Positions 3,742 to 47,223 of a DNA stretch of 64,000 bases are shown piece after piece (within the stretch, counting starts at the first letter, position 1; every line of letters starts with the position of its first letter). The position numbers and the translations under genes were made by a program. Source of the DNA: Terriglobia bacterium (GTDB taxonomy: Bacteria; Acidobacteriota; Terriglobia; 20CM-2-55-15); contig CBDCLE010000010.1 in the NCBI GenBank assembly GCA_965218585.1, positions 96,001 to 160,000 on the forward strand, in the 5' to 3' direction. Below the pieces are notes generated by a model. It was given only the letters and a program-made list of their open reading frames with translations. It did not search any database and was not told where the DNA came from.

Positions 3742-4569
3742 GGTTCTGGTGCAGACAGCCCAAGGGAATTGGCGATAATGGGATATGGCGCATCGCAAAA
3801 CGAAACGGAATCCTCTATTTGCCGGACGTTGGTTCGAAGACGACATCATTCTCCTCTGCCTTCGCTGGTATTTTCGCTTCAAACTCAGCTACCGGGATTT
3901 GGTCGTGATTCTTGGTGAGCGGGGCTTGTCGATTTCGCACACCACAATCTTGCGTTGGGTGGTTCGCTATGCCGAAACGTGCGAAAAGCGCTGGCGCCGA
4001 TTCGAGCGACCGGTAGGAGGGAGCTGGCGAGTCGATGAAACGTTCATCAAGGTTCGGGGCCAGTGGATGTATCTGTACCGCGCCGTGGATGGACAGGGCA
4101 ACACCGTGGAGTTCTATCTGAGTCGAACACGCGGCATTGCTGCAGCGAAGGCATTCTTTCGCAAGGCACTGAAGCATCATCCGGAGCCACACAGCATCAC
4201 CCTGGATGGCCACCGGCCGAGCCATAGCGCGTTACGTCGCATAGGAATGAACGGGGATTTCAACTTCCGGGGACGGAACCCGGTGAAGATTCGTTGCTGT
4301 CAATACCTGAACAACGTGGTGGAGCAGGACCACCGCCGGGTGAAGGGGCGATTGCGGCCGATGTTGGGATTCAAGACGTTCTACAATGCGCGACGGGTGA
4401 TTACCGGCATCGAGCTGGCGCAGAAGATCCACAAACGCCAGTTCGCAATTCCGATCACATTGCAGTCGAATCCTGCGGTGATCTGGCGTCACGTCATGGC
4501 AGCATAGTCCGCATCGCTGCGGCACACTCCTGGTCTTATCGCTCCGACAATCCTATCTGCACCAGAACC
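3742..4569 (+). mobile_element. IS6-family element (828 bp) with 8-bp TSD
   Basis: IRs ggttctggtgcagacag / ctatctgcaccagaacc; TSD ctatcagg at 3734-3741 and 4570-4577. Confidence 0.95.
3785..4507 (+). CDS. IS6-family transposase
   Basis: SWRVDETFIKVRGQWMYLYRAVD and YLNNVVEQDHRRVK motifs. Confidence 0.95.
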   Translation: MAHRKTKRNPLFAGRWFEDDIILLCLRWYFRFKLSYRDLVVILGERGLSISHTTILRWVVRYAETCEKRWRRFERPVGGSWRVDETFIKVRGQWMYLYRAVDGQGNTVEFYLSRTRGIAAAKAFFRKALKHHPEPHSITLDGHRPSHSALRRIGMNGDFNFRGRNPVKIRCCQYLNNVVEQDHRRVKGRLRPMLGFKTFYNARRVITGIELAQKIHKRQFAIPITLQSNPAVIWRHVMAA

Positions 4570-7788: not shown

Positions 7789-8171
7789 TGCCCCTTCCCT
7801 TTTGGAATTTCGTTCTTGGTGTCATCCGGCTGCGTTGCATTGCCTGTCTTGAAGGAGCGGTTTTCGACGGACTCTTCAAAGCGCGACGGCGGTGTGGCCA
7901 CTGTGGTTACTTCTTCGCACGTGAAAGCGGCTACTTCCTGGGCTCGGCCTATATCGGCTATGGCGCCGCAATCGCCGTTGCGATCGGAACGTGGTTCGTT
8001 CTGGGGTACCTCATGGGCATGGGCTGGACTTGGCCCGTCCTGGCAGTTCTTCTCCTGGTGGTCTCAGTTTTCCCCATCTGGTTCTTCCGATATTCGAGAA
8101 TGATGTGGATGGCGCTGGATATGTATCTCAATCCCCCCGTAAAGGAAGATTTCCAGTCACGAGGACGGTAA
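7788..8171 (+). CDS. DUF983-like zinc-ribbon membrane protein
   Basis: CxxC...CxxC followed by two hydrophobic helices; overlaps the upstream stop codon. Confidence 0.7.
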   Translation: MPLPFWNFVLGVIRLRCIACLEGAVFDGLFKARRRCGHCGYFFARESGYFLGSAYIGYGAAIAVAIGTWFVLGYLMGMGWTWPVLAVLLLVVSVFPIWFFRYSRMMWMALDMYLNPPVKEDFQSRGR

Positions 8172-8236
8172 CGCTGACTTGCGGGCACTCGAAGCGGCAG
8201 CTTAAAATGGTCGCCTCGCCTCGGAGGCGGATACAA

Positions 8237-8309
8237 GGCCCCATCGTCTAGTGGTTTAGGACGTAGCCCTCTCAAGGCTAAAACACGGGTTCGACTCCCG
8301 TTGGGGCTA
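8237..8309 (+). tRNA. tRNA-Glu (anticodon CTC), CCA not encoded
   Basis: Acceptor stem ggcccca/tggggct, anticodon arm tagcc-ctCTCaa-ggcta, T arm acggg-ttcgact-cccgt. Confidence 0.95.
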
Positions 8310-8404
8310 TTCTTTTACGGCCACCATTCGGAGGCTCACGCCCATTTAAATCGTGTAGGTGGGGCCGGGTGCGGCCCCAGTGATGGGAGGCGTATCCGAC
8401 CCTT

Positions 8405-10213
8405 CTACTCGTCAATCAGAATGACGTCAATGTTGTCACTGTAGAGCTGTTCCACGAGAGAGTGCCGCTGCTCCAGTACGGCACGCTGATTGACGTAGCC
8501 TTTGTCCGTAATTTCGCCGGCATCTATATCGAGTGGTTGGGTCAGCAGCATGACGCGGGCAACAGAGCTGCTTGAAGCCGGATTCGCCGCGTTGTATTTT
8601 GCGAGGCTGGTCCGCAGATGCGTCTCCAACGTGATTTGGTTGACGAGCTCCGTTAGTTCAGTATCCGGGGCGTTGCCACACAGCTCACAAATTCCTGCGA
8701 TATTCGGTACGATCAGCAGGCCGATTTCATCTCGATCGTGTCCAGTCACAATGGCATCCTCGATGACTTCGGGACATGCGGAAATTGCAGCGGTTCTCAG
8801 TGTGCCGGTGCTGACCCATGAACCGGTCAGTAACTTGAAGTCTTCGGCGACACGGCCGTCAAACACGATTCCCTTGTTGGGGTGGTCCGGGTCCGCAAGT
8901 GTTCCGGCATCTCCTGTTTTGAAAAAGCCGTCGTCGTCGAACGCTTGCTGTGTCAGATCATCCCGTTTGAAATAACCAGGTGTGACGTTGGGTCCACTGA
9001 TCCGCAATTCGAGCTTTCCTTCGTTGGGCAGCATCTTGAGGTCCGTTCCCGGCACTGGCAGGCCGACTATGCGGGCGCGATCGACCGGGTAGTGGGTGCC
9101 GACTGCCAACGGTCCCGACTCTGTCAATCCCCAGCCTGACATCATGGCGACTTTGTAGCCCAGCGCAGCAATTGACAATGCCTCAATTCTTTCCCATAGG
9201 TCCTGCGGCAGTGCCGCCGCCGAGTGGAAAATCAAGTCGAGATTCGAGAAAAAGTGATCGCGAAAGTCTGCGTCCTGTTCCAGTAGCGGGACCAGCATCT
9301 GGTAGCCCCGCGGCACATTGAAGTAAAGCGTAGGTGTAATTTCCCGCAGATTTCGAACAGTGGTCCGAACCATCCCGGGAGCGGGTTTACCGCCGTCGAT
9401 GTACAGTGTTCCGCCGTTTCTAAGGATCAGGTTGAAATTGTGATTGCCGCCGAAAGTGTGATTCCAGGGGAGCCAGTCAACCAGTACCGGTCGGCGGCGG
9501 GCAATGAACGGCCACACTTGAGCGAGCGCCTGCTGATTCGAACAAAGCATGCGGTGCGTGTTGATGACACCCTTGGGCACGCCCGTCGATCCGGAGGTAA
9601 ACAGGATTTTCGCCACCGTGTCCGGATCGACCTGTGACAAGGCATCATCCACGGCCTGGGTCGCGGTCACGTTAGTCGATTCCTCGAGATCCATCGCGGT
9701 GACGATGTCGACACCGTCGAGATCGAGTGCGGTGAGCGCACTGCCAAACTCATCGGCGTCGGCTGCAAAAACGACTGAAGGTTCGACGAGGTCGAATATG
9801 AACTTGAGCTTGCTGAAGTCCTGCGACTTCAATGAATAGGAGGGCGACACCGGCACGGTGGGAACGCCGATAAACATTGCGGCCATTTGCAGTAGCGCAT
9901 TGGCGATGCTGTTTTCGGAAAGCAGCATTACTGGCCGCTCGGCGGAGATACCTCGATCCAGGAGAGACTGTGCTGTTGACCGGACAGAATCGAGTGCCTT
10001 CCGGTAGGAAATGTGATTCCAGTCCCCGTCGGCCGGGCGTTCGGCGAGAAACGTACGGTCCGGCGCTTTTTGGGCCCAGTCAACTAGCCAGCTACAGGTG
10101 TGGTCGGGGTAAGGCCCCAGCGCGATCGGCGATCGCAGTATGAATCCGCCGTCGGACAGCGATTCAACTTCGACCCGTGCAGGTGCGAATTCCGGTGCTG
10201 TGCGGCCAGTCAC
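8405..10213 (-). CDS. Feruloyl-CoA-synthase-like aryl-acid CoA ligase
   Basis: FTSGSTGVPKG, DWLPWNHTFGG, GWGLTE, FKTGD and GEITDKGYVNQ motifs; GTG start 4 nt after the transaminase stop. Confidence 0.88.
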   Translation of the reverse strand: MTGRTAPEFAPARVEVESLSDGGFILRSPIALGPYPDHTCSWLVDWAQKAPDRTFLAERPADGDWNHISYRKALDSVRSTAQSLLDRGISAERPVMLLSENSIANALLQMAAMFIGVPTVPVSPSYSLKSQDFSKLKFIFDLVEPSVVFAADADEFGSALTALDLDGVDIVTAMDLEESTNVTATQAVDDALSQVDPDTVAKILFTSGSTGVPKGVINTHRMLCSNQQALAQVWPFIARRRPVLVDWLPWNHTFGGNHNFNLILRNGGTLYIDGGKPAPGMVRTTVRNLREITPTLYFNVPRGYQMLVPLLEQDADFRDHFFSNLDLIFHSAAALPQDLWERIEALSIAALGYKVAMMSGWGLTESGPLAVGTHYPVDRARIVGLPVPGTDLKMLPNEGKLELRISGPNVTPGYFKRDDLTQQAFDDDGFFKTGDAGTLADPDHPNKGIVFDGRVAEDFKLLTGSWVSTGTLRTAAISACPEVIEDAIVTGHDRDEIGLLIVPNIAGICELCGNAPDTELTELVNQITLETHLRTSLAKYNAANPASSSSVARVMLLTQPLDIDAGEITDKGYVNQRAVLEQRHSLVEQLYSDNIDVILIDE

Positions 10214-10217
10214 GTCG

Positions 10218-11477
10218 TTAAACGGACTCGGCGGCGACATCTTGCATCGCAGCACAGGCGCTTTCCAGTGCCGCGGAAATGTCTTCCTCTGTGACGACCG
10301 TGGATAGAGCCACCATTCCGCGGGGCGCGATAAACAGCCCATGATTCAGACACGCGACATGAAACTTGTCCATGAGACCTTCGTCTTCACGAACCACGGG
10401 CGAATCAGGTATCGAATCACTGAGGAAGAGGTTCAGGCATGAGCCGTGGTGATTGATTGCAAGTGGCAGGCCGTTTTTCTTCGCGATATCGATCAACCCG
10501 GCTTCGAGCGATTCCCTCAGCCGATGCATCTGCTCGATTCGCTCGACCGTCAATTCGCGAAGCGATATTTCGCCAGCCACCATCGTGACGGGGTTCGCAT
10601 TGAATGTCCCCGAATGAAAAAGTTTCAAGTCTGCGGGATCGAAAAGTTTCAGCAGTTCGGCACTTCCGCCGACTGCGCCGACCGGAAACCCACCTCCGAT
10701 GATTTTGCCGAGCATTGTCAGGTCTGGCCGGATACCGATGTCCGCCTGACAACCACCCGTACCGAATCGCAGCGTCAACACTTCATCGAGTACGAATAAC
10801 GCGCCGGCCTTGCGTGCTGCGGCCTGCACACGGTGAAGGAAACCCTCTCGAGCCTCAACGATTCCACCTGCGCCCTTCACGGGTTCCAGAAAGACGGCGG
10901 CAATTTCATCTCCATGCTCGCCGAGCACTGCCTCGAAGTCAGCCGGGTCGTTGTAAGTTGCCAGGTAAGTCAGCGGCCCCTCGTTGCCGAAAGATCCGAT
11001 TTCGAATTCGTGCAACGAACCGTGGTAGCCGTACCTGGCCATCAGTAGTTTCGATCCGCCCGTTATCTCCCGCGCGATAGTAAAAGCGAGTGCGCCGGCT
11101 TCGGATCCGGAATTGGTAAATCGAACCTGTTCGATGGAAGGCACACGGTCAACGATAGTCGCCGCAAGCTTTATTTGCGGCTCGTTGGCCGCCGCCCAAC
11201 TTGTGCCCCGACCGATCTGCTCTCTGACCGCCTCGACAATCGGCGGATAAGCGTGGCCATGGACAAGGGCGGTGTAGTTATTCAGCAGATCGAGGTAACG
11301 GTTACCATCGACGTCGTGGAAATAAGCGCCTTCGCCACGCTCAATCGTTAACGGATAGGGTGCCCAGAACGAAGCCTGGCGGGACGTGCCGCCCGGCATG
11401 AGCCGGCTGGCCTGGTCGTAGTTGCCCGCGCTTGATCTGGTGCGTTTGCGATAGGCTGCATAAATGGGTGAGGTCAT
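10218..11477 (-). CDS. Class III PLP aminotransferase (GSA-aminomutase-like; resembles beta-phenylalanine transaminases)
   Basis: MPGGTSRQ..F..PYPLTIERGEG, RFTNSGSEA, YHG, DEV, GKIIGGGFPVG and SGTFNANP motifs. Confidence 0.85.
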   Translation of the reverse strand: MTSPIYAAYRKRTRSSAGNYDQASRLMPGGTSRQASFWAPYPLTIERGEGAYFHDVDGNRYLDLLNNYTALVHGHAYPPIVEAVREQIGRGTSWAAANEPQIKLAATIVDRVPSIEQVRFTNSGSEAGALAFTIAREITGGSKLLMARYGYHGSLHEFEIGSFGNEGPLTYLATYNDPADFEAVLGEHGDEIAAVFLEPVKGAGGIVEAREGFLHRVQAAARKAGALFVLDEVLTLRFGTGGCQADIGIRPDLTMLGKIIGGGFPVGAVGGSAELLKLFDPADLKLFHSGTFNANPVTMVAGEISLRELTVERIEQMHRLRESLEAGLIDIAKKNGLPLAINHHGSCLNLFLSDSIPDSPVVREDEGLMDKFHVACLNHGLFIAPRGMVALSTVVTEEDISAALESACAAMQDVAAESV

Positions 11478-11496
11478 CTGTGGCACTTCGCAGGTT

Positions 11497-12732
11497 TCAG
11501 TTACTCGCCACGGACACGACGAGGGCCATGGCCGTGTCCCCCGCCGCGCAGCCGGTGAAAAGACCGCGCCCACCTCCGCGCATTACAAGTTCTTCGATCA
11601 GTTCGATAATCAGCCGCATTCCGGTCGGTGCCTGCGGATGGCCCCAGATTAGCGAGCAGCCGAAATTGTTCATATCTTCGAGGGATACTCCGGCTTCACG
11701 GGCGAAGATGATGTCGTTCACGGCAAACGGATTGTGCGTCTTGATAGCGTCCATGTCCCTGAATGACAGGTCCGCCCGTTCAAGTGCCGCATGGGCTGCG
11801 CCATAAGGTGCCTCCGGCATGAATCCCAATTGTGCGCGCGATTGGCCGGCACTCAGGATGCGAATTCGCACGGTATTATCAGTCGCTAGTTCGCGCGCCT
11901 GATCGCGGCGCGTGATTATCATGGCAGCGTTGCCATCAGCGGGATGCGTTTGGCCGCCAAACGTCACCGTACCGCCGTCGATTACGGGCTGAAGTTTTGC
12001 GAGGCCGTCGGCCGTTGACGCAAAAATCCCCTGATCGCCGTCGATCTCCTCGGCTGTCGTGCGAAATCGTGGGTCCGGAACTCGAAAAGGCAATTCTATG
12101 TACCGCTTCTGAAACGCACGGTTGTCGGCGAGCGCGTCTTTGTATTGCGCATATCGAAGCAGCACGACTTCGTGTTGCTCGGCTGTTGAAATCGAATGTT
12201 TGGCGGCAACGTTTTCAGCGGTCTGTATCATTGAGTGCCCACCGAGCGGATCGCACCCGAAGCTGTCGATTACGACGTCCTCGGTTACACCGGTACCTGC
12301 TGGCGCCTCTGGTGCGGGATAATAGGTGTGCGGCCCGTTCGAACAACGGTCGGTGGTTGCCGCCAAAACGGTTTGGGCAAGGCCGCTCGCGATTTCCATC
12401 GAAGCCAGGACCGATGCCCTTACGCCAGATGCACAGACTTGCGACACAGTTGGCCCCGGCGCTTGTGGCGCTCCGAGCAAACCCATGAACCAGGGTGTAC
12501 CGTAAAAAGACTGGTGTTGATAAACAGAGATGCCGAGCACGCCGGCATCAAATATTTTCGGATCAATGTTGCGCTTGTCGAGTTCCCGGCGGGCGACGTA
12601 AGCTGCGAACTTGACAGCGTGTAAGTGCTGCAGCGCGCCCTGCCAGCGCACGAACGGCGTAGACCAGTAACAGCCGTAGGGAATCTCAACCTGGTCAAAC
12701 ATTGCTCTTGCCTTTTCGGTAATTCGATTCAC
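11497..12732 (-). CDS. Thiolase family protein (HNPF-type)
   Basis: Nucleophile motif QVCASG, THNPFA, GHPQAPTG and C-terminal GCAAGD; GTGA overlap with the upstream gene (alternative ATG at 12702). Confidence 0.85.
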   Translation of the reverse strand: MNRITEKARAMFDQVEIPYGCYWSTPFVRWQGALQHLHAVKFAAYVARRELDKRNIDPKIFDAGVLGISVYQHQSFYGTPWFMGLLGAPQAPGPTVSQVCASGVRASVLASMEIASGLAQTVLAATTDRCSNGPHTYYPAPEAPAGTGVTEDVVIDSFGCDPLGGHSMIQTAENVAAKHSISTAEQHEVVLLRYAQYKDALADNRAFQKRYIELPFRVPDPRFRTTAEEIDGDQGIFASTADGLAKLQPVIDGGTVTFGGQTHPADGNAAMIITRRDQARELATDNTVRIRILSAGQSRAQLGFMPEAPYGAAHAALERADLSFRDMDAIKTHNPFAVNDIIFAREAGVSLEDMNNFGCSLIWGHPQAPTGMRLIIELIEELVMRGGGRGLFTGCAAGDTAMALVVSVASN

Positions 12733-14312
12733 GCGTCCCAGTCAAGATCACCGTCCGGCAGCGCTTCGAGCAGGCGGCCGTTCCGCAGTAAGGTTGCGGC
12801 AGCCTCGATGTGATCGGTCAGCGATTCATCGTGATCCAGGTAGGGAACCACCTCACGAACCATATTGTAAATCTTGCGCGTAACGGTACTCAATAGCCGA
12901 GCGCCACCGTCGCGCTGGTCCACTGCCTGGCAGGCACACATGAGTTCAACTGCGGGCACCGCGTAGCTGATGTTGAGCATGTCGCGCGCACGCCGCGCCG
13001 CAACCAGTCCCATGGACACGTGATCCTGGAAATCTCCGGTCGTGGTCAGCGTCTGGATCGAGACCGGATGACAAAGCGATCGCATTTCAGCCATGATCGA
13101 GGACGCACAATACTGGATTCCCATCAGGCCGTGACGAATGCCAGGGTCCTCCTTGCAGAGGAAGGGCGGCAAGCCGTTATTATGGAAAGGATCGAGATAA
13201 CGATCGATCCGCCGGTCGTGCAGATTACAGGCATTTGTCAGTGCGATCGAAATGTGGTCCATCGCCTGGCTGACATACTGGCCATGAAAATGTGCATTGT
13301 GGAATGCATCGCCTTCCTCGACGATGACGAGGGGATTGTCGTTGGTGGAATTGATTTCGATTTGCAGGGTGCGGTCAGCCTGCCAGAGCGCATCCACCGA
13401 CGGGCCCAGAATCTGAGCGCCGGCGCGTAGCGAGTAAGCGTCTTCAATCTGTTGATCCATACCCTGCACTTCACCGGTCCGCATCGATGATAGCCAGACA
13501 TCAACTTCCTCGTCCTGCACGACCATCTTGCTGTCGCCGAGCGCCGTCCAGATCGCATCTGCCACTTTGAGCTGCCCGGGGTGGGGTTTGTTGCGATGTA
13601 CCGCTGGGTGGTAGGGCATGATTTTGCCGCGCAGTGCTTCGAGCGTTAGTGCTGCCACCAATGCGGATTGTTTCAGCAGTTTCTTCGTGCGATAGATGAC
13701 CGGCACCGCGACACCGACCATCATCGAAGTGCCATTGATCATGGCGAGGCCTTCCTTGTAAGAAAGCCGTGCAGGCTCGAGGCCGGCGCGTTTCAGGGCC
13801 TCTCCTCCGGGCATGATTTCGCCGTCGTATTTGGCACGCCATGCGCCGGTGACGACCAGCGCGATATGCGCGAGCGGCCCGAGATCGCCACTCGCACCGA
13901 GGGAGCCTTGCTCCGGAACGCATGGAACGATGCCCGCGTTATAAACAGCAATGTACTTCTCGAAGTTTTCGGGACTGATGGCCGACACACCGCGGCCGAG
14001 CGAGTTGATGCGGCAAAGCATCGCCGCGCGCACATAGACGTCGTCGAGATCATCGCCGACATTCGTCGCAACTCCTCGCAGAATGTTGTTCTGCAGTTTT
14101 TCGGCCAGTTCTTCGGGAATGAGGTAGTTGACGAATCCGCCGACAGCAGTAGTCACTCCATAGATTGTTCGTCCCGACTTTACGAAGCCATCCAGAAGGT
14201 CGCGCGATGCTTTTACGCGCGCAGCCTGTTCAGTAAAAATGTCGACCCTGGTGTTCTGTTGCGCAGCTTCTGCCAGCTGATCAACCGTCAGTGTGTCGCC
14301 GTCAAGATGCAT
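12729..14312 (-). CDS. MIO-dependent aromatic amino acid aminomutase/ammonia-lyase, AdmH/EncP-like clade
   Basis: MIO motif GSLGASGDL; GGFVNY, LQNN...VATNVG, EDAYSLR, NDNP, HFHGQYVS and TTGDFQD segments match my recollection of the phenylalanine aminomutase AdmH rather than HutH. Confidence 0.85.
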   Translation of the reverse strand: MHLDGDTLTVDQLAEAAQQNTRVDIFTEQAARVKASRDLLDGFVKSGRTIYGVTTAVGGFVNYLIPEELAEKLQNNILRGVATNVGDDLDDVYVRAAMLCRINSLGRGVSAISPENFEKYIAVYNAGIVPCVPEQGSLGASGDLGPLAHIALVVTGAWRAKYDGEIMPGGEALKRAGLEPARLSYKEGLAMINGTSMMVGVAVPVIYRTKKLLKQSALVAALTLEALRGKIMPYHPAVHRNKPHPGQLKVADAIWTALGDSKMVVQDEEVDVWLSSMRTGEVQGMDQQIEDAYSLRAGAQILGPSVDALWQADRTLQIEINSTNDNPLVIVEEGDAFHNAHFHGQYVSQAMDHISIALTNACNLHDRRIDRYLDPFHNNGLPPFLCKEDPGIRHGLMGIQYCASSIMAEMRSLCHPVSIQTLTTTGDFQDHVSMGLVAARRARDMLNISYAVPAVELMCACQAVDQRDGGARLLSTVTRKIYNMVREVVPYLDHDESLTDHIEAAATLLRNGRLLEALPDGDLDWDA

Positions 14313-14964
14313 GCTTGTCCCCTTTTCTTTGCGCTTACGCATTCTAGGACAGTTTAATGAGGCATATTTATCTATCTTCTGTCAGTTTAGCGAACTGATG
14401 CCGATCCGGGGGTTGATTGCCGCCCGGGCGCAATTGGGGGCGGTTCACACGCCGCCACTCTGATTCGGGTCCCCGGCGTACCGGGCTTCACGTACAATCA
14501 TCGAACCGTGACGATCAATTCATTCCGCCGTGTCCTTGACGTTCGATTTGGCGACTAAGAACATGAAGAAGACAATTGCTGACTGGGACCATGTAACTCC
14601 GGAAATGGATGCTTCCTTGGCCGGAGGCGATCCTTCCGGCTGGACGCGGAACGGGTGCCCGGTCCCGTAGCGATTAGCAACAAAAGCTGTATTTCAGGAC
14701 AGCGAACAGACTGAATGGAGGTTTATCCATGACCAAGCCTGAATTTCAGAATGATTCCGACGCGATTCGGAATGCATGCAAACTGCTTATGACAGCGGCA
14801 AACTCTTCCGACGCCGACCTATGGGCGTCGCTGTACACACCAGATGCGGTCTTAATGCCGCCCAATCTGCCGTCACTGAATGGGCCCGAAGTGTTAATTT
14901 GCACGGAAAAGTGATCCGGGTTTTGCATTGAAAATTGACCCGGGTTAGAGAGCCGGATTATGGC

Positions 14965-15744
14965 TCATGGGTTGGGGTTTTTCCGGGGTTTAGTCTCCTT
15001 TGTGTGTGTGGAACTGTTTCTAAAACGGTAACTGTCATTGCCGGTTTCGACGATGTGGCAATGGTGGGTGAGGCGGTCGAGCAGCGCGGCGGTCATCTTC
15101 GTGTCGTTGAAGACCCGGGGCCATTCACCGAAGGCAAGGTTGGTGGTGAGGACCCTGCGGGTGCGCTCGTAGAGTTTGCTCAGCAGGTGGAACAGCAAGG
15201 CGCCGCCGGCCTGCGAGAACGGCAGATAGCCGAGTTCATCGAGAATGACCAAATCGACTTGCAGGAGCCGGTTGGCGATCTGCCCAGTCTTACCCTTGGC
15301 TTTCTCCTGTTCCAGCGTGTTGACGAGTTCGATAGTGGAGAAGAACCGGACTCTGAGGCGATGGTGAGTGATGGCCTGCACGCCGATGGCCGTGGCGAGA
15401 TGGGTCTTGCCGGTGCCCGGTCCGCCGATCATCACGATGTTGTGAGCGTCGGCGACGAAGTCACATCGATACAGTGAGCTGAGCAGTGCCTCATCAACGG
15501 GGCTTTCATTGAAGTCGAAGTTGGAGAGGTCGCGATAGGCTGGGAAGCGGGCGGTCCTCATCTGGTAGTTGATGGAGCGGACCTCGCGCTCGGCGACCTC
15601 GGCCTCGGTTAAGGTGTGGAGCATGGGCTCTATGTTTGAGAAAGCCGGAGCGCCTTGCCGCGCGAGTTCATCGACCGCTTGCGCCATGCCATGGAGTTTG
15701 AGCGACCTCAGCGCGCTGACCAGAGATTCAGATGACATGGCCAT
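14965..15744 (-). CDS. istB: IS21 helper ATPase IstB
   Basis: [24 protein letters not shown] and LLDRLTHH motifs. Confidence 0.95.
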
Positions 15745-17177
15745 CTCCTCTCAAGCGGTCGTAGCGATGAACATCGGCCTTCGGTTCATTGAGCAGTGTC
15801 AACGCATCGGGTATATCGATGAGGCTGGGCGGCGAGGCTTCCAGTAACCGGCTCAGGATATTGAGCACATGTTGCTTGGAGGCGGCCCCGGCTGCGAGTG
15901 CGATCTCGGCGGCACGCAGCACCGCCGGCTCATCGTGGTGCAGCACCAGCGCCAGGATCTCCACCATCTCCCGGTCCCCGCCAGGTCGCTTGAGCCGCGC
16001 CGCCTGGAGGCGCTTGAAAGGTTGGGGAAGCTCGGCGAAGGGAGCGCCGTTCCTCAACGCGCCCGGTTTTCGTTGGAGGACGCTCAGGTAGTGGCGCCAG
16101 TCGTAGACGGTTCGCCCTGACCGGCAGTCGCGCCCGCGCGCGATCACCCGCGGATGCTCAGCGATGACCTGGCCTTCGGCGGCAATCACGATGCGTTCGG
16201 CGTAGACGCGGACACTGACCGGCCGGTTGGCAAACGCGGCCGGCACGCTGTAGCGATTACGCGCGAAGGCGATAAGGCAGGCCGGAGAAACACGCTTGGT
16301 GTGCTCGACAAAGCCATCGAACGGCGTCGGCATGCGCATCAGATGCGCGTGCTCATCGGCCCAGACCTCGGCGACTGTACGCTGGGGCTGCTCCGGGTGA
16401 TGGATCTCGTCCCAGAGACCCCGGCATCGCCGCTCAAGCCACACGTTCACGTCACGGAAGCCAGCAAACTCAGGCGCGTCATGGAACAGACGGGGCCGCG
16501 CGTCCCGGACGTTCTTCTCGATCTGGCCTTTCTCCCATCCGGCGCCAGGCGTGCAGAACTCCGCTTCGAACAGGAAATGGCTCACCATCGCCTTGAACCG
16601 GGCGTTGACCACCCGGGCCTTCCCTCGGCCCACTCGGTCCACCGCTGTCTTCATGTTGTCGTAGATGCCCCGCCGGGGCACACCGCCCAACGCCGCCAGA
16701 CAATAGTTGTGGGCGTCGAACAGCATCTCGTGGGACTGTAGCGGATAAGCCCGCAGCATGAACGCCCGGCTGTGGCAGAGTTTGAACTGCGCCACCATCA
16801 GCTTCGTGCGTTCACCGCCGATGACCACCCAGTCCTCGCTCCAGTCGAACTGGAACGCTTCGCCGGGCGCAAACACCACGGTCATAGGACCCCGTGTAGC
16901 CAAGCTTCATCAACTCGCCGTGCAGCTGCTTGAGATTACGCAGCTCCTTGCGACCCCGGGCCGATTCCCGCTTCAGCCACGACGCCAGCAACTCGGCGTA
17001 GCCGTCCACTTTGCTCCGGCTCCTGCGCTTCGGATAGACCGCCTCCAGAGCGCCGCTCGCCAAGTGCTTCCGGATCGTATTGCGCGACAGCTTCGTTCGC
17101 CTGCTGATCTCTCGAATCGATACGCCCTCTCGTACATGCCAGCGTCTGATCACACTCAATATCGCCACGTCTATCAC
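15728..17177 (-). pseudogene. istA: IS21 transposase IstA, frameshifted by a short internal deletion near 16880
   Basis: N-terminal HTH (VIDVAILSVIRRW...GYTGSYDR) and core (VFAPGEAFQFDWSED, YDNMKTAV, GWEKGQIE) lie in different frames and the usual linker is missing. Confidence 0.85.
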
Positions 17178-17751
17178 TCCTTTGCCCTCCTGCTCTGTTA
17201 ATCGGCAGGAATGGGTATACACGTGGGTCAAATTTCGATGCAAATACCCGCTTTAAGTGGATCAGTTTTGGGTGCAAATCAACACCCGAAGAGATCCGGG
17301 ACTATATGGCTAAAGAGTTTTTTGGCCCTTTCGATGTGACAATGACGGATCAGACCGACGAGTTGACGATCGTTGGCGACTTGGCGGTTAGAAGGGGTGT
17401 AGGGACCGTGACTCTTGTGCCTAAGACCGGAGGACCTGCTATCGAAGAGACTTTCAAATACTTAGAGTCCTGGGGGCGAGGGCCGGACGGTTCGTGGAAG
17501 ATCACGCAGGACATCTTCAATAGCAGCAAGCCAGCGGAGTGAATGCAGCCGAGATGGGTTTATGCCTGAAGGAACGCCTGCCGGTGCAGTAATTTGCGAG
17601 TTCAAGTCCTAGAAATCATCTTCTCGGACGTCGAGAATCGGGGGCTCGATGAGAAAATGATGGGAAGAACGATGAGAAAAAGCAGAACCCCGATAATTTT
17701 CAGCCACTTGGAAAGCCATTCGACTCCCGTTGAGGCTATTTTCGGAAGAAG

Positions 17752-19410: not shown

Positions 19411-20257
19411 GGGGTCAGAGCCCTATTTCTCCATTTACCCCGCCATCTCATGATCCAGAATCGATTCATTTTTACTCGCTGGACGACCACGTTTGCGTGG
19501 GCGGATTCTTCGGCCCAAACGGCCTTCCAATTCGAGTACAAAGCGCTCAGAACCCCAAGGTCGCCCTGAAAGCGTCTGACTGCGGATCAGAGATGTCTTC
19601 TCGGCCGACTCACCTTCTTCGAGCCAGGCAGACCAATCTTTTGGCCATGAACCGGGTGGAAATTCGTCCGTAAGTAGCGTATCGAGTCGTATTCCACAGT
19701 GAGCGCCCGCACTAGACCATTCGTAATCTTCCGCACGGGGAACAATCCCTGCACGAACAGGATTGAGTTCGACATACCTCACAGCATTTCGAAGGTGATT
19801 GGCATCCAACACGCACGAAAAGAAACGCCCTTGCCAGAGATGACCAACGGCACCATACGTCCAATTGAAATACGTAGCGTAAGCGCTATGAGCATCCCGG
19901 ATCGTTGCGGGCAATGAATTTTCATCTTCCGGTACTCCTACCAAATGGACGTGATTTCTCATCAGAACATAGGCCCAGATACCCAATCTGTGTCGCTCGG
20001 CATATTCCCCGAGCAAACGCATGTAAATTTCACAGTCTCTAGAGTCATTGAAAGTCGCCGTTCGTCGGTTTCCGCGTTGGGTAATGTGATGAGGAAGACC
20101 GGGAACGACCACTCGAGTAAATCGCGGCATAATTTTTTTAGGGCTGAAATCGAGGAGGGCTGGCAAAATAAAAAGCAATTCGCCGTTTAACACAAGAGGT
20201 TTTGCGAGTTCCTGTAAAAGCTGTAAGGAGAAATTGGGGAATTAGGGCTCTGACCCC
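19411..20257. repeat. 15-bp inverted repeats bracketing the RAYT gene
   Basis: ggggtcagagcccta (19411-19425) and tagggctctgacccc (20243-20257). Confidence 0.85.
19435..20130 (-). CDS. REP-associated tyrosine (HUH, Y1) transposase
   Basis: MPR...PHHITQRGN, MRNHVHL, GHLWQGRF, YVELNPVRAG and YEWSS motifs. Confidence 0.9.
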   Translation of the reverse strand: MPRFTRVVVPGLPHHITQRGNRRTATFNDSRDCEIYMRLLGEYAERHRLGIWAYVLMRNHVHLVGVPEDENSLPATIRDAHSAYATYFNWTYGAVGHLWQGRFFSCVLDANHLRNAVRYVELNPVRAGIVPRAEDYEWSSAGAHCGIRLDTLLTDEFPPGSWPKDWSAWLEEGESAEKTSLIRSQTLSGRPWGSERFVLELEGRLGRRIRPRKRGRPASKNESILDHEMAG

Positions 20258-20650: not shown

Positions 20651-20818
20651 TGCGTATTCCGGTCGATCGTGATCACTGATTCCGATCCAAGGTGATCAGC
20701 AATTCCGGGATTGTGATCACTGATTCCGGTCATCATGATCACCGATTCCGGCGATCATGATCACCCGTCGATAGCGAAGTTTTACCTGCTAGGTTCTCCT
20801 TACAGGAAGGAGAACTTG

Positions 20819-22369
20819 ATGGGAGCAAAACGGCTATCGATGAGACAGTCACGCGAGATTCTACGATTCAAATACGAACAGGAACTCAGCCACCGGGCCA
20901 TCGCCCGAGCCTGCCGAGTGGGAGTCGGGACGGTATCGGAGTACGTCCGACGAGCGGCAGAGGCGGGGCTGGAATGGCCGCTTCCAGAGGATCTGGACGA
21001 TGCAGCCCTGGAAGCGCGGCTGTTTCCCCACGCGGGACCAGGCTCGAGGGAACGAGTGCCTCCGGATTTGGAACGGATCCACCAGGAGTTGAAGCGTGTG
21101 GGAGTCACGCTGCACCTGCTGTGGGAAGAGTACCGGGAAGCGCATCCGGAAGGATATGCCTACAGCCAGTTCTGTGAGATCTGCCGGCGTTGGGCCCAGA
21201 AACTGAAGCCCTCGATGCGACAGGTGCATCGCGCCGGAGAGAAGGCCTTCATCGACTTTTCCGGCAAACGGCCGCAGCTGACGGATCCACACACGGGCGA
21301 AGCTGTTGCAGTCGAGTTGTTCGTGGCCGTGCTGGGCGCCAGCGGTTACACCTATGCCGAAGCGACTCCGAGCCAGAAACTCCCCGACTGGGTCGGTGTG
21401 CATATCCGCATGGTGGAGTTCTTCGGCGGATCGAGCCGGATCTGGGTTCCCGACCAACTCAAGAGTGCGATTACCCAGTCCTGCCGCTATGAAGCCGGCG
21501 TGAACCGCACCTGCCAAGATGCGGCCGAACACTACGGCGCAGTCGTCATTCCGGCCCGACCACGGAAACCCCGGGACAAGGCCAAGATCGAATCAACCGT
21601 CCTTCTGGCGCAGCGCTGGATTCTGGCGAAGATCAGGAATCGAACATTCTTCAGTCTGGCAGACTTGAACGAGGCGATCCGGGAGTTGCTGGTGGAACTG
21701 AACCAGCGGCCAATGCAAAAGCTTCGAGTGTCCCGTCTGGAACTCTATGAGCGACTGGATCGACCGGCATTACAGTCACTGCCGACCCACCGATATGAAC
21801 AGGCCGAATGGAAGGACTGTCGGGTCAACATCGACTACCACATTAGCGTGGATCGCCATCCTTACAGCGTGCCCTACCAGTTGATCCACCAGACGCTGGA
21901 AGCCCGTTACACCGCGTCCATTGTCGAGGTGTACCACAAAGGCCGGCGCGTCACCTCTCATCGCCGCCGCTACGATCACCAGCCCTCGACACTATCGGAA
22001 CATATGCCCAGTGCCCATCGGGCCCATGCGGAATGGACCCCGTCCCGGCTGATCCATTGGGCCCAGCAGACCGGCCCCAAGACCGGCCGCCTGGTCGAGG
22101 AGATCATGAAACGGTGGCCGCATCCGGAACAGGGGTACCGGGCCTGTCTGGGATTGATGAGTCTGGGGCGCCGTTCCGGCGCCGAGCGGCTCGAAGCCGC
22201 TAGCGCACGGGCACTGCACTTGCGGTCCTATAGCTACCGCACCGTCAAGAACATCCTGTCCTCGGCCCAGGACCGGTTGCCGTTCGAGGAAACCGAAACC
22301 CCACCCACACCCCATCACGACAACATTCGCGGCGCCGCCTACTATGCGGATCCGGAGGAGACGCACTGA
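20819..22369 (+). CDS. istA: IS21 transposase IstA
   Basis: FIDFSG, VPDQLKSA, KPRDKAKIE and C-terminal HDNIRGAAYY motifs. Confidence 0.95.
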   Translation: MGAKRLSMRQSREILRFKYEQELSHRAIARACRVGVGTVSEYVRRAAEAGLEWPLPEDLDDAALEARLFPHAGPGSRERVPPDLERIHQELKRVGVTLHLLWEEYREAHPEGYAYSQFCEICRRWAQKLKPSMRQVHRAGEKAFIDFSGKRPQLTDPHTGEAVAVELFVAVLGASGYTYAEATPSQKLPDWVGVHIRMVEFFGGSSRIWVPDQLKSAITQSCRYEAGVNRTCQDAAEHYGAVVIPARPRKPRDKAKIESTVLLAQRWILAKIRNRTFFSLADLNEAIRELLVELNQRPMQKLRVSRLELYERLDRPALQSLPTHRYEQAEWKDCRVNIDYHISVDRHPYSVPYQLIHQTLEARYTASIVEVYHKGRRVTSHRRRYDHQPSTLSEHMPSAHRAHAEWTPSRLIHWAQQTGPKTGRLVEEIMKRWPHPEQGYRACLGLMSLGRRSGAERLEAASARALHLRSYSYRTVKNILSSAQDRLPFEETETPPTPHHDNIRGAAYYADPEETH

Positions 22370-23130
22370 TGCTAATGGAACAGACCCTGGAGAAGATGAA
22401 CCAGATGAAGCTATCGGCCATGGTCGCGGCCCTGGATCAGCAACGCATCTCGAATCAGTACACCGATCTCAGCTTCGAGGAACGTTTGGGCCTGCTGATC
22501 GATGAGGAATGGACCGCTCGGGAGCACCGCAAGCTCACCCGGCGCCTGCGCGCGGCCAAGCTGCGCTACACGACCGCATCGCTGGAAAACGTCGACTTCA
22601 AACATCGTCGCAGTCTGGACCGTTCCCAAGTCCTCGCCCTGGGCTCGGGCGGATGGGTCCAGGACCGGCACAATCTCATCATTACCGGTCCAACAGGCAT
22701 CGGAAAGAGCTTCCTGGCTTCGGCCTTCGTCGAACGTGCTTGCCGGCAGGGCTTCAACGCCACCTACGTCCGCATGCCCCGGCTGTTGCACACCCTGGCG
22801 GTCGGCCGTGGAGACGGCTCCTACACCCGAGTTCTGGCCCGGTTGGCCAAGGCCGATCTGTTGGCCATCGACGACTGGCTCCTGGCTCCGCTACGCGACT
22901 CCGAACGCCGGGACCTGATCGAAGTCGTGGAGGAACGTAGCAAACGCTCCGCCATCCTGATTGCCAGCCAGCTCCCGGTCGCCGACTGGCACAGCGCCAT
23001 CGGCGACCCCAACCAGGCCGACGCCATCTGCGATCGCCTCCTCCACAATGCGCACCGCATCGAACTCAAGGGGCGTTCGATGAGACGCACCCGGACCGCG
23101 CCAAAAGCATCCTCCAGCGAGTCGGAATGA
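22369..23130 (+). CDS. istB: IS21 helper ATPase IstB
   Basis: GPTGIGKS, AIDDW, SQLPVADW and ADAICDRL motifs. Confidence 0.95.
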   Translation: MLMEQTLEKMNQMKLSAMVAALDQQRISNQYTDLSFEERLGLLIDEEWTAREHRKLTRRLRAAKLRYTTASLENVDFKHRRSLDRSQVLALGSGGWVQDRHNLIITGPTGIGKSFLASAFVERACRQGFNATYVRMPRLLHTLAVGRGDGSYTRVLARLAKADLLAIDDWLLAPLRDSERRDLIEVVEERSKRSAILIASQLPVADWHSAIGDPNQADAICDRLLHNAHRIELKGRSMRRTRTAPKASSSESE

Positions 23131-45970: not shown

Positions 45971-47166
45971 GAGGTCATTACAAAAGGTGTGTAAAAGTCA
46001 TCAGGCGGCGGCCTTCGATTTCATCACGACTCTGATGCCGTCAGCGAATTGCTGACCATCATAGACCTCTTGTAAGAGTTCGGATCCTTTTAAGTGTCGC
46101 CAAGCCTTCTCAGCGACACGTAGTAGCTTCCAGATCATTGCCGTTGCATTCTCGACACGCTTGAATCGGCGAACTGATCCCGCTTTCGTTCGCAGGCCGC
46201 GCGGGAGTTCGCGAAGGCCATCCCATGAAGCAGCTGTCTGGCCGCGGGCTGCTCGGTCTTCGGCAGATGATCGACCACGTTGATCGACTTGTGGTTCCAG
46301 CAGCGTTGTTCCTGGCCCTGGGGCTGTTGCTCGGCCAGCGCGGACCAGATGCCCAGGTGACCGTCCGCGACAGTCAGCCGTCCCAGCTTCAGGCCCCGTC
46401 TCTGGAGATTGCGCAGAATGCGGCTCCAGGACTCCTTGTTTTTCCGCTGCCCGCTCTCACAGGCCAACACCACTTTGCGCCCGTCTGACAAGGCTCCGAT
46501 GATCACCAGCAATGCCGCTCGCTCTTTCGCGATCCCCGCTTTCACGTACAAGCCGTCTGCCCACTGGTACACGACCTCGAGGCCGGACAGGTCCTGCTGG
46601 ACCCACTCGTCATACTCCAACTGCCAGGTCGATTTCAGTCGTTGGATCGATGCTCGCGACAACGGAGCGCCAGCGCCAAGCAGTCCGCGCATGGCCTGCT
46701 CGAAGTCCCCTGTGGCCAGACCGTGGAGGTAGAGATCGGGAAGTAGCTCGCCCAGCTGTTTCGATTTCCGTCGAAAATACGGCAGGATCTGACTCTCGAA
46801 CCGCTCGGCGGTGTTTCGAACCCGAGGTCGTCGAACCTCCATCGTACCGTTCATCATTGCGAAGCGTCGCGGCTTCCCGTGACCGTTCCGGTATCCTCGT
46901 CGATTCGGACTCCGCTCCGACTTTTCCCGACCCAGAAATTGAGTGACTTCGTCCTCGAGCAGCTCCTGTAGCCAGACTTGGACCCGGGATCGCGCCCAGT
47001 CCTCCAAACCTTCATACGCGTTCGTTGACGCCACTGATGCCGGTATGTTCTTCTTCTTCATGGGTGGTGTACCTTTCTCCCGATTGCTGCCGGGATTGCT
47101 TACGGTTTCGAATTCACCGAAAGCGTACACCGCCTTCTCTTTTTACACACCGATTGGAACGACCTC
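45971..47166 (-). mobile_element. IS256-family element, copy A2 (169-bp internal deletion, transposase frameshifted)
   Basis: Same IRs as 1319-2697; lacks the bases equivalent to 1535-1703; 1196 = 1379-14-169. Confidence 0.92.
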
Positions 47167-47223
47167 TATCTGGTTGATTTGTTGTTTACCAGACTTCAAA
47201 GCAACCAAGGGAGATACGCCACT

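Follow-up and report, generated by a model that had tools for sequence, protein, structure and literature searches.

A four-gene module that may shorten the phenylalanine side chain to benzoyl-CoA without oxygen or a redox step

The β-oxidative conversion of phenylalanine to benzoyl-CoA, known from EncP, EncH, EncI and EncJ of Streptomyces maritimus and from plant peroxisomes, has cinnamate as an intermediate and depends on a hydratase and a dehydrogenase. The anaerobic phenylalanine pathway of Thauera and Aromatoleum passes through phenylpyruvate, phenylacetyl-CoA and phenylglyoxylate; it is oxidative, involves several oxidoreductases and loses two carbons as CO2. A logic of aminomutase, transaminase and thiolase underlies the leucine 2,3-aminomutase "β-keto pathway", and a thiolase cleaves benzoylacetyl-CoA in the acetophenone branch of Aromatoleum aromaticum. 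This branch belongs to anaerobic ethylbenzene degradation and comprises the acetophenone carboxylase Apc and the benzoylacetate-CoA ligase Bal (PMC4729919). (S)-selective transamination of β-phenylalanine has been reported as well, and the keto acid formed by the known degraders, benzoylacetate, decarboxylates spontaneously when free to give acetophenone (PMC6150868).

Here we analysed a 64,000-nt stretch of DNA from a Terriglobia bacterium (the window). An initial annotation had proposed that four enzymes convert phenylalanine or tyrosine, through the β-amino acid, the aroylacetate and aroylacetyl-CoA, to aroyl-CoA and acetyl-CoA. The four co-directional minus-strand ORFs were confirmed, and their family assignments were upheld by Pfam, NCBIfam and PDB comparisons. 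The features of the locus are as follows.

8237..8309, plus strand: tRNA-Glu(CTC), convergent with the ligase gene, one module border (ARAGORN)
8405..10240 (alternative 10213), minus strand: acyl-CoA ligase of a family named feruloyl-CoA synthase, predicted benzoylacetate (or β-phenylalanine)-CoA ligase (Pfam, NCBIfam)
10218..11477, minus strand: class III (fold type I) aminotransferase of the β-phenylalanine transaminase group (Pfam Aminotran_3, PDB matches)
11497..12702 (alternative end 12732), minus strand: divergent thiolase, predicted benzoylacetyl-CoA thiolase forming benzoyl-CoA and acetyl-CoA (Pfam, catalytic landmarks)
12729..14312 (alternative end 14342), minus strand: AdmH-like MIO (4-methylideneimidazol-5-one) enzyme, predicted phenylalanine 2,3-aminomutase forming β-phenylalanine (Pfam, NCBIfam, PDB matches)
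14407..17638, minus strand: IS21-family insertion between the operon and native upstream DNA (Pfam, uninterrupted contig)
14965-15744, minus strand: istB (Pfam IstB_IS21)
15728-about 17300, minus strand: istA, frameshifted and split over two frames (Pfam Mu-transpos_C_2)

The genes are tightly packed whichever starts apply. The MIO gene has an AAGGGG ribosome-binding site 6 nt ahead of its ATG at 14312. The thiolase more probably starts at ATG 12702 than at GTG 12732, since an AAAGG site lies upstream and the resulting 401-aa protein has the N-terminus MFDQVEIPYGCYW... that 8 of the 14 relatives compared also have (L001, L002, L003, L049, L050, L052, L056 and L105). It leaves a 26-nt gap to the MIO gene, and the GTGA overlap described initially exists only with the less likely GTG. 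The annotated 19-nt gap between thiolase and aminotransferase genes holds and gives an aminotransferase of 419 aa, the ORF length also found in L050, L051 and L057. The annotated 4-nt gap between aminotransferase and ligase genes requires a ligase start at GTG 10213; the ATG at 10240 gives a 23-nt overlap and 611 aa, a length that matches the 92-95% identical proteins P0001 and P0002. ARAGORN confirmed the neighbouring tRNA-Glu(CTC), 95 nt past the ligase stop. As noted before, families of NRPS/PKS, enoyl-CoA hydratase or hydroxyacyl-CoA dehydrogenase were absent, here from the 32 ORFs scanned with Pfam (the window has 65 of 90 aa or longer).

We give roughly even weight to the reading that these genes specify an O2-independent, redox-neutral shortening of the L-phenylalanine side chain to benzoyl-CoA and acetyl-CoA, with the amino group passed on. 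The MIO enzyme would move the amino group to C3, yielding (S)-β-phenylalanine, and the aminotransferase would transfer it to 2-oxoglutarate or pyruvate, releasing free 3-oxo-3-phenylpropanoate (benzoylacetate). The Fcs-like ligase would trap this unstable acid as benzoylacetyl-CoA, which the thiolase would cleave to benzoyl-CoA and acetyl-CoA. The β-oxidative Enc and plant route has in common with this scheme an MIO enzyme acting on phenylalanine, a CoA ligase, a thiolase and the end product, but where it uses cinnamate, hydratase and dehydrogenase the window module has a β-transaminase and no redox step. The Thauera and Aromatoleum pathway shares the substrate and benzoyl-CoA as central intermediate, whereas the proposed route would retain C2 as acetyl-CoA with no oxidoreductase. 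The Kat variant of lysine fermentation (PMC3149608) likewise proceeds from an aminomutase-made β-amino acid through a transaminase to a β-keto compound and thiolase cleavage; it and the leucine system differ in using radical SAM or B12 aminomutases on aliphatic substrates, in place of an MIO enzyme on an aromatic one. The Aromatoleum acetophenone branch has the last two steps that are proposed here, from benzoylacetate through benzoylacetyl-CoA to benzoyl-CoA and acetyl-CoA, and feeds benzoyl-CoA reductase, but its benzoylacetate comes from ATP-dependent ketone carboxylation and not from an amino acid. In agreement with the initial annotation, we found no description of the operon or pathway in the literature searched, and an oxygen-free, redox-neutral route from phenylalanine to benzoyl-CoA looks so far undescribed.

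The MIO protein (Pfam Lyase_aromatic, 538 bits) has TIGR04475 (Phe_D_beta_mut, the family of AdmH) as its top NCBIfam match, as do 8/8 MIO relatives tested; it scores 715.5 bits, below the cut-off of 800, with HAL as runner-up at 480. Its best PDB match is AdmH (PaPAM) of the andrimid biosynthesis of Pantoea agglomerans (3unv), which aligns end to end at 561 bits and leads the next match (333) by 228 bits. The ASG triad and the catalytic-loop Tyr are kept and the switch motif VATNVG is identical. At the position of the phenol-binding His of the tyrosine aminomutase SgTAM, all 35 aligned MIO proteins carry Val. This residue, as in AdmH and not as in the tyrosine enzyme, favours phenylalanine over tyrosine, so that the first of the two substrates named initially is retained and the second is disfavoured. 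We thus predict a phenylalanine 2,3-aminomutase, by sequence tools that do not separate mutase from lyase. Differences from AdmH are the score below the equivalog cut-off, the predicted status of the mutase activity, and a catabolic context (Lrp, benzoyl-CoA reductase, thiolase, ligase) instead of NRPS/PKS.

The top PDB matches of the aminotransferase (Pfam Aminotran_3) are StoTA (6k8h, 289 bits), VpAT (4ao9, 269) and MesAT (2yku, 266), (S)-selective enzymes that would fit the (S)-β-phenylalanine product of AdmH; GSA aminomutases reach at most 243 bits, and the hemL model TIGR00713 gives 291 against a cut-off of 527. The window protein shares with these three enzymes the catalytic Lys and the two Arg that bind the substrate carboxylate. 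One Arg, in ...GG(T/N)(S/T)R, corresponds to R41 of VpAT (counted on the tagged chain) and to R36 of StoTA, the likely carboxylate binder (PMC10589169); the other is the switch Arg, in PRG. Proximity to three characterised β-amino-acid transaminases, together with these residues, favours a substrate with a free carboxylate. The proposed aromatic β-transaminase signature (Crismaru et al.; positions mapped through StoTA substitutions listed in PMC10589169) speaks against this placement in part, since only one of four mappable positions agrees (Thr; the others are Arg, Ala and Asn). The known β-phenylalanine degraders differ further in that their keto acid decays to acetophenone (PMC6150868), while the window encodes a ligase and a thiolase alongside.

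Spontaneous loss of CO2 from free benzoylacetate (PMC6150868) makes a CoA-first order chemically safer. The ligase would then form β-phenylalanyl-CoA and the aminotransferase would act on the thioester, as in Kat, to give benzoylacetyl-CoA directly, with the same end products and no free β-keto acid. Kat is indeed a HemL-like class III transaminase whose gene lies beside a thiolase gene (PMC3149608), and a CoA-dependent route is described for β-valine, another β-amino acid, (PMC4619459). We nevertheless regard this order as rather unlikely: the window enzyme retains both carboxylate-holding Arg of VpAT, MesAT and StoTA and is far nearer to these free-acid enzymes (266-289 bits) than is Kat, with a reported 24% identity to MesAT. 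Benzoylacetate-CoA ligase is also a known activity (PMC4729919).

The preferred order, with transamination of the free acid, leaves activation and cleavage to the remaining two enzymes. The ligase (Pfam AMP-binding and AMP-binding_C_3) scores 758.6 against NF009232, whose cut-off is 777, and its homologues are labelled feruloyl-CoA synthase by JGI and NCBI, a family named for the activation of C6-C3 aromatic acids. Its functional counterpart in Aromatoleum would be Bal; the window enzyme is of the Fcs-like family. The family's name refers to cinnamate-type acids and not to β-keto acids. The thiolase has Pfam Thiolase_N and Thiolase_C, scores 181 against TIGR01930 (cut-off 240.55), and aligns with PDB thiolases at all four catalytic landmarks (Cys, Asn, His, Cys).

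A failure of the four genes to co-occur elsewhere had been named as refuting the pathway; instead, the module was found, rearranged, in numerous marine MAGs, which bear several phylum-level labels, and in metagenome contigs. Five or more gene orders occur, a pattern that points to selection for keeping the genes together and not to an inherited arrangement. In a MIO-seeded survey of genome contigs, 20 loci had an MIO at least 60% identical, and in 13 of these an aminotransferase, thiolase or ligase gene lay nearby, against 0/23 HutH-like loci (30-39% identity), all such counts being drawn from related, incomplete MAGs and hence not independent. A thiolase-seeded metagenome survey found MIO, aminotransferase or ligase in 20/20 loci with thiolase at least 75% identical, although some contigs are probably duplicates of MAG contigs (L001/L105, L003/L056). 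Below 75% identity (n=60), L070 (61%) alone had the module, with all four genes, and MIO or aminotransferase occurred in 0/59 of the others. A Lrp/AsnC gene, divergent where mapped, flanks 26 of 46 loci with MIO or a close thiolase (L001-L019, L022, L049-L065, L070, L071, L075, L105); TRAP transporters and indolepyruvate-oxidoreductase-like genes are near some. With dN/dS of 0.06-0.13 against L001, all four genes are, by this comparison, under purifying selection.

Among the 26 loci whose thiolase reaches 75% identity, 19 carry an adjacent β-amino-acid-type aminotransferase gene, frequently placed between MIO genes or next to one. Such a gene is absent from the available flank at the close loci L002, L022, L049 and L052, as an adjacent ligase is at L005, L006, L050 and L051. 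The four loci lacking the aminotransferase would suit an MIO enzyme that gives mainly cinnamate, which the ligase would convert to cinnamoyl-CoA; hydratase and dehydrogenase genes at other sites would supply the steps to benzoylacetyl-CoA, the thiolase would release benzoyl-CoA, and the aminotransferase would have an accessory or salvage role. The feruloyl-CoA synthase name of the ligase family and the MIO score below the PAM cut-off point the same way, as do the acyl-CoA dehydrogenase, SDR and hydroxyacyl-CoA dehydrogenase genes across the Lrp gene in L057 (by cluster membership) and the beta-oxidation-like clusters in which thiolases 50-64% identical occur. We consider such a lyase route improbable, since it would make the aminotransferase of those 19 loci substrateless, the scanned window ORFs hold no hydratase or hydroxyacyl-CoA dehydrogenase, and the closest characterised relative, AdmH, is a mutase.

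The module is further connected to a consumer of its predicted product. Next to it, 12 of the 26 close loci have a convergent (tail-to-tail) operon of hemerythrin and bcrCBAD, which encodes a class I benzoyl-CoA reductase (BCR). All four subunits exceed their NCBIfam equivalog cut-offs (D 429/313, A 660/578, B 807/487, C 626/421). Seventeen genomes have an MIO at least 60% identical, and in 12 of them BcrB scores above its cut-off; among 151 genomes sampled in the family of G402, 13 were MIO-positive and 11 BcrB-positive, all 11 having MIO, and none of the MIO-negative genomes had BcrB. Position and co-occurrence thus support a link through which marine gammaproteobacteria, the module's home, would pass benzoyl-CoA to the adjacent reductase.

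A three-subunit Mo-hydroxylase adjoins the module in L001 and L105, the closest loci, with the same gene order, and in L049 and L052. Its γ and α subunits have 4-hydroxybenzoyl-CoA reductase as top NCBIfam match and its β subunit has that family second, and the FAD subunit carries a Cys-rich insertion, presumably the HcrB hallmark. Such a neighbour might indicate the same chemistry on another aromatic amino acid, for instance on tyrosine (with 4-hydroxybenzoyl-CoA as product) or on an alanine bearing a substituted aryl or a heteroaryl group. Two MIO paralogue types (V-A/S or V-Q at the switch), at times in one operon (L003, L056), also suggest two substrates. This too seems unlikely to us: the enzyme scores far below the cut-offs (172 vs 258, 339 vs 995, 159 vs 405), BCR is the sole such neighbour at most linked loci, with no Mo-enzyme, and the MIO proteins have the Val of phenylalanine-specific AdmH and not His at the phenol-recognising position.

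To our knowledge, all AdmH-type and tyrosine aminomutases characterised so far are biosynthetic, and the Streptomyces homologue L021 scores above the PAM cut-off, so a supply of β-phenylalanine or of a benzoyl-CoA starter for a natural product, as in andrimid (AdmH) or enterocin (EncP-J) formation, might be considered. We hold this to be very improbable, because NRPS/PKS families are absent from the 32 window ORFs and from 40 neighbour ORFs scanned from related loci, the genes around the module encode Lrp regulators, TRAP transporters and a degradative benzoyl-CoA reductase, and the module is spread across several phylum-level labels of marine MAGs.

In the Terriglobia genome itself, aromatic catabolism as annotated initially is supported for the side-chain route by families, synteny and the BCR link, but not as a full pathway. 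The genome (95.5% complete) shows no boxB, bcrB, AOR-type enzyme, benA, pobA or hmgA, no boxC or oah above cut-off, and no BCR subunit by tblastn. It thus has only the upper module, with no recognisable ring pathway for benzoyl-CoA or benzoate, so that here the cassette would supply acetyl-CoA and nitrogen as glutamate, while benzoyl-CoA or benzoate would remain.

The distribution is patchy. None of 34 further genomes from the family and order, and none of 400 others sampled in the class, has the MIO gene, and identity to L001/L105 (a gammaproteobacterial MAG), 82% at the nucleotide level, is limited to the four genes (8441-14321), ending at 8441 on the tRNA side. The module was therefore probably acquired horizontally, as a four-gene cassette that lies between the tRNA-Glu and a M23 peptidase gene; those relatives of ClpB from the window that carry a name belong to Acidobacteria/Terriglobia MAGs. 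The IS21 element inserted later: a contig of run X5, about 96% identical, runs straight from 14406 to 17639, with no IS21. CGGGGG stands on both sides of the insertion. Expression of the operon is presumed; the element lies 64-94 nt upstream, and the native promoter may thus be cut off.

Four co-directional ORFs were found on the minus strand between 8405 and 14342, as the initial annotation had described, and the following genes and starts were retained for the module.

8237-8309, strand opposite to the module: tRNA-Glu(CTC)
8405-10240 or 8405-10213, minus strand: ligase (LIG), start at ATG 10240 or GTG 10213
10218-11477, minus strand: aminotransferase (AT), likely start ATG 11477
11497-12702, minus strand: thiolase (THL), 401 aa, likely start ATG 12702, with an MFDQVEIPYGCYW N-terminus also found in relatives and an AAAGG site upstream
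12729-14312, minus strand: MIO enzyme, likely start ATG 14312, preceded by AAGGGG at a distance of 6 nt

With the aminotransferase starting at ATG 11477, the 19-nt gap first reported upstream of it holds; the GTGA overlap also claimed would need a thiolase start at GTG 12732, which is less likely than ATG 12702. The genes are closely packed whichever starts are chosen. A promoter and terminator scan of 8150-15100 gave 4 promoter-like sites, where 2.8 ± 1.5 were expected, and none of them lies upstream of the MIO gene; the outcome was uninformative.

The MIO protein matched Lyase_aromatic (PF00221) over its full length (538.5 bits, profile 1-466 of 466), and the Ala-Ser-Gly triad is present, its GASGD aligning with the MIO site (X in the AdmH chain). 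Placement of this protein, the aminotransferase and the ligase relies on NCBIfam and PDB scores, which stand in for a tree with named references. The top NCBIfam family was TIGR04475 (AdmH-type phenylalanine aminomutase), at 715.5 bits below its cut-off of 800 and 236 bits ahead of HAL (histidine ammonia-lyase); eight relatives scored 673-776 bits on the same model, save the Streptomyces protein of locus L021 with 879. AdmH was the nearest solved relative (561 bits), the tyrosine aminomutase SgTAM reaching 333. The selectivity-switch motif reads VATNVG in both the window protein and AdmH and HSAGVG in SgTAM, and the switch Val is present in 35/35 aligned homologues. In MIO enzymes the switch position sets substrate selectivity, the AdmH type having a hydrophobic residue rather than His; the Val residue thus favours Phe over Tyr as substrate. 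A 2,3-aminomutase rather than an ammonia-lyase is predicted, with indirect support from the beta-amino-acid transaminase gene that is recurrently found next to it.

The aminotransferase belongs to class III. Among solved structures it comes closest to three beta-amino-acid transaminases that have been characterised, StoTA (6k8h), VpAT (4ao9) and MesAT (2yku), which at 266-289 bits outscore all glutamate-semialdehyde aminomutases (243 bits at most). HemL TIGR00713 gave 290.8 bits and did not reach its cut-off of 527.3, and a separate HemL-like paralogue, with 34% identity, lies on contig C8 of the same genome. The LGK, GGTSR and PRG of the window protein align with the residues that serve in the three structures as catalytic Lys, as the Arg of the P-pocket binding the beta-carboxylate and as switch Arg; the VpAT numbering was verified on the tagged chain. 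A signature motif for aromatic beta-amino-acid transaminases was reportedly proposed by Crismaru in 2013. According to one report, the changes that StoTA would need to carry this motif are S17P, T38V, Y47T and N70E (PMC10589169). The window protein has R, A, T and N at these four positions, so that one of four fits, and the motif is not strictly predictive according to the same text (PMC10589169), which also proposes R36 of StoTA as the carboxylate binder (PMC10589169). The preserved carboxylate-binding arginines favour a transaminase acting on the free acid.

Both Thiolase_N and Thiolase_C (Pfam) are present in the thiolase. Its VCASG, NPFA, GHP and GCAAG have aligned counterparts in 8jg3 and 4dd5, and these motifs hold the nucleophilic Cys, the Asn, the His and the acid/base Cys of thiolases. 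The score on TIGR01930 (acetyl-CoA C-acyltransferase) was 181.1 bits, below the cut-off of 240.55, and on sequence criteria the protein is a divergent branch of the thiolase superfamily. The ligase scored 758.6 bits on NF009232/PRK12582 (profile 20-616 of 624), 18 below the cut-off of 777, and its near homologues carry the name feruloyl-CoA synthase at JGI and NCBI.

The route put forward in the initial annotation would be the simplest reading of these four genes. The mutase would turn Phe into (S)-beta-Phe, the beta-transaminase would convert this into benzoylacetate, the ligase would form benzoylacetyl-CoA, and the thiolase would split the latter into benzoyl-CoA and acetyl-CoA. A precedent for the last two steps is the benzoylacetate-CoA ligase of the Aromatoleum acetophenone pathway (PMC4729919). 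The second step is the established fate of beta-Phe in Variovorax and Paraburkholderia, where the keto acid, with no ligase present, decays to acetophenone (PMC6150868). The ligase might also act first, followed by a Kat-like transaminase working on the thioester. This order would bypass the unstable intermediate and has an enzymatic precedent in Kat, which includes a beta-Phe thioester (PMC3149608), but transamination before ligation is judged the more probable of the two orders, and the conserved carboxylate-binding arginines of the aminotransferase favour the free acid. Where the aminotransferase is not adjacent, a lyase followed by beta-oxidation, as in the Enc type, is possible. For the window this route meets two difficulties: a conserved beta-transaminase would have no substrate, and the required hydratase and dehydrogenase were not found in the 32 ORFs scanned there. 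As first noted from the sequence, there was no Pfam match to NRPS/PKS or enoyl-CoA hydratase families, nor any to the hydroxyacyl-CoA dehydrogenase family, in the 32 ORFs scanned out of the 65 in the window of at least 90 aa.

The initial annotation had made its proposal dependent on the four genes occurring together elsewhere. A synteny survey showed that the module does recur, in several gene orders. A first search, seeded with the MIO protein in one genome per species, gave 45 loci (among them L001-L022). A homologue of the aminotransferase, thiolase or ligase lies near the MIO gene in 13/20 loci with an MIO protein at least 60% identical, and all four genes are present in L001, L003 and L016; the other 7/20 have none of the three partners, three of them breaking off at the MIO gene or close to it. 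The 23 HutH-like loci (30-39% identity) have none of these partners. An independent search of metagenome contigs, seeded with the thiolase (L049 upward), was restricted to the best 80 of 546 relatives. Among these, MIO, aminotransferase or ligase genes accompany the thiolase in 20/20 loci at 75% identity or more, seven of which have all four genes, and the full set is also found in a more distant lineage, L070 (thiolase 61% identical). The other 59 metagenome loci of these best 80 (thiolase 50-64%) contain neither MIO nor aminotransferase genes and are ordinary beta-oxidation-like or ligase-bearing clusters.

The order MIO-THL-AT-LIG is shared by the window, L001 and L105. A second MIO paralogue, MIO', has Gln in place of Ala/Ser right after the switch Val and leads the commonest metagenome arrangement, MIO'-AT-THL-LIG; further orders are MIO'-AT-MIO-THL-LIG, AT-THL-MIO, MIO-THL-LIG, MIO-AT-LIG and THL-LIG...MIO-AT. 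Linkage thus outlasts rearrangement of gene order, which indicates a shared function, with the reservation that the loci are not all independent, since some metagenome contigs probably repeat MAG contigs (L001/L105, L003/L056). An Lrp/AsnC gene flanks 26 of the 46 loci with MIO or a close thiolase (L001-L019, L022, L049-L065, L070, L071, L075 and L105), as a divergent neighbour where mapped. In some loci the module also has genes for a CoA transferase, a second ligase, TRAP transporters or indolepyruvate-oxidoreductase-like proteins nearby. This neighbourhood points to catabolism, not biosynthesis.

L020 (Chlamydiae) and L021 (Streptomyces), whose MIO proteins are 52% identical, were dropped as a biosynthetic contrast because no NRPS/PKS was found in the 9 neighbour ORFs scanned. 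In L009, L012, L016, L017 and L018, which come from MAGs of SAR324, 'Deltaproteobacteria' and others, another class III aminotransferase, no more than 35-37% identical to that of the window, lies between two MIO genes. Nearby, L009, L012 and L016 (unlike L017 and L018) have a 37-40% identical ligase, and L012 has indolepyruvate-oxidoreductase-like genes. Thiolases of about 60% identity were also seen within GntR-thiolase-AMP ligase clusters (L068:6488-12894, L079:7162-14551). Next come genes of the hydantoinase/oxoprolinase family, for which the top names, each below cut-off, are caprolactamase alpha and subunits of acetophenone carboxylase. These clusters may be a related module that makes, activates and cleaves a beta-keto acid.

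MIO' was found in L003:110-1786, L056, L057:5035-6651, L058, L059, L061 and L065, with 56-59% identity to the window protein, and in L013 and L014, with 62-63%. In L003 and L056 both types, V-A/S and V-Q, lie within one operon. A three-subunit Mo-hydroxylase adjoins the module in L001:12022-16094, L049:6238-9652, L052 and L105. For its gamma and alpha subunits the best match was 4-hydroxybenzoyl-CoA reductase, which came second for the beta subunit; all scores are far below the cut-offs, and this function was not assigned. The FAD subunit has a Cys-rich insertion, with six Cys per ~45 residues. The existence of two MIO types and this neighbouring enzyme resembling 4-hydroxybenzoyl-CoA reductase would both suit a possible second substrate besides Phe. 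A distant Mo-hydroxylase homologue with a four-Cys insertion was seen in the window's own genome (C4:1792-5037).

A hemerythrin gene and bcrC-B-A-D, encoding the subunits of class I benzoyl-CoA reductase (BCR), lie tail to tail with the module in 12 of the 26 close-thiolase loci, and two further contigs stop within the hemerythrin gene.

Loci with the module linked to bcr genes
L002, L022, L050, L051, L053, L054, L056, L058, L059, L063, L065, L071

All four subunits exceeded the NCBIfam equivalog cut-offs (D, 429 against 313; A, 660 against 578; B, 807 against 487; C, 626 against 421). BcrB was above cut-off in 12/17 genomes with an MIO protein at least 60% identical and absent in both genomes with a 52% homologue. 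Among 151 genomes sampled from the family of genome G402, 13 were MIO-positive and 11 BcrB-positive; all 11 of the latter carry MIO and no MIO-negative genome has BcrB, a co-occurrence to be read as a pattern and not a statistic because the genomes are related and incomplete. The two genomes with MIO and no BcrB are G401 and G475, the latter of 1.8 Mb. The hemerythrin-domain gene was seen directly after bcrD in L002 (12841-13410) and in 13 other loci, and its product may assist the oxygen-sensitive reductase as an oxygen sensor or by protecting it.

In the host lineage, the MIO gene was found in 0/34 further genomes of the family, which here coincides with the order, and in 0/400 others sampled across the class (14 families, 147 genera). 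The window ClpB has its named relatives in Acidobacteria/Terriglobia MAGs (75-76% identity), and the closest modules come from MAGs with the label Gammaproteobacteria or Woeseiaceae. At the nucleotide level the window is 82% identical to L001/L105 across 8441-14321, the match ending where the four genes end. The GC content of the module (57.4%) does not differ from that of the genome (57.2%) and dN/dS relative to L001 is 0.06-0.13, which together argue for an established acquisition under selection, neither fresh nor decaying. Three public runs yielded contigs that cover the module with 99-100% identity. A ~96% identical contig from a fourth run joins 14406 straight to 17639, which indicates that the 3232-bp IS21 element in between is a later insertion and that the junction of the module with the M23-peptidase flank is no assembly artefact. 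This element (14407-17638, approximate bounds, where no convincing terminal inverted repeats were found, 8/60 positions matching) lies upstream of the MIO gene, 64 nt from the longest ORF start and 94 nt from ATG 14312; it has an intact istB, a frameshifted istA and CGGGGG on both sides.

In the host's own genome (95.5% complete), boxB, bcrB, an AOR-type enzyme (AOR_N), benA, pobA and hmgA were not found, boxC and oah were not above cut-off, and a tblastn search with four subunits of BCR from relatives had no hits. If active here, the module would yield only acetyl-CoA and an amino group, leaving benzoyl-CoA or benzoate.

Taken together, these data allow a broader proposal, to which we give somewhat less than an even chance: the four-enzyme, redox-neutral beta-amino route would be the main feed of Phe from protein into BCR in marine-sediment Woeseiaceae-type bacteria, BCR there would serve largely for the degradation of amino acids, not hydrocarbons, and the upper module would move between phyla as a self-contained cassette by which a cell gains acetyl-CoA and an amino group from Phe, the benzoate being left to its neighbours. 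Every enzyme family and single reaction type of the module is already known, and its logic parallels lysine fermentation as well as the leucine beta-keto pathway. To our knowledge, MIO aminomutases are known from natural-product biosynthesis only, and a catabolic role would be the first. The accepted anaerobic route from Phe to benzoyl-CoA is oxidative and long and loses two carbons as CO2, whereas the proposed one would be a new entry to the anaerobic benzoyl-CoA pathway with four enzymes and no oxidoreductase, C2 being kept as acetyl-CoA and nitrogen as glutamate. It would explain why BCR was found only in MIO-bearing genomes (11/11) in an abundant marine sediment family, and would connect the turnover of protein in sediments with the anaerobic reduction of aromatic rings. 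In the literature outside most subscription journals and supplements, we found no description of the gene set or pathway, no route to benzoyl-CoA in which a beta-transaminase, ligase or thiolase is combined with an aminomutase, and no link between phenylalanine aminomutase and benzoyl-CoA reductase. The enzymes would also be of biocatalytic interest, for beta-amino acids and for a ligase/thiolase pair coping with an unstable beta-keto acid.

The window is unusually rich in genes for transposases (1438-2661, 3785-4507, 14407-17638, 19435-20193, 20735-23130, 36338-37579 and 46135-48792), which comprise three of the Mutator family, an IS240-type DDE, two IS21 and an IS200-like Y1. One IS21 copy has the frameshifted istA and the other is apparently intact (544 + 253 aa). 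At 60962-62317 there is probably a group II intron, to judge from an ORF in which a reverse-transcriptase domain and a group II intron maturase domain were matched. Between 38000 and 50000, GC climbs from about 56-58% to 63-64%, and this stretch codes for a BCCT transporter as well as an outer-membrane barrel protein of 1237 aa that has a CarboxypepD_reg domain.
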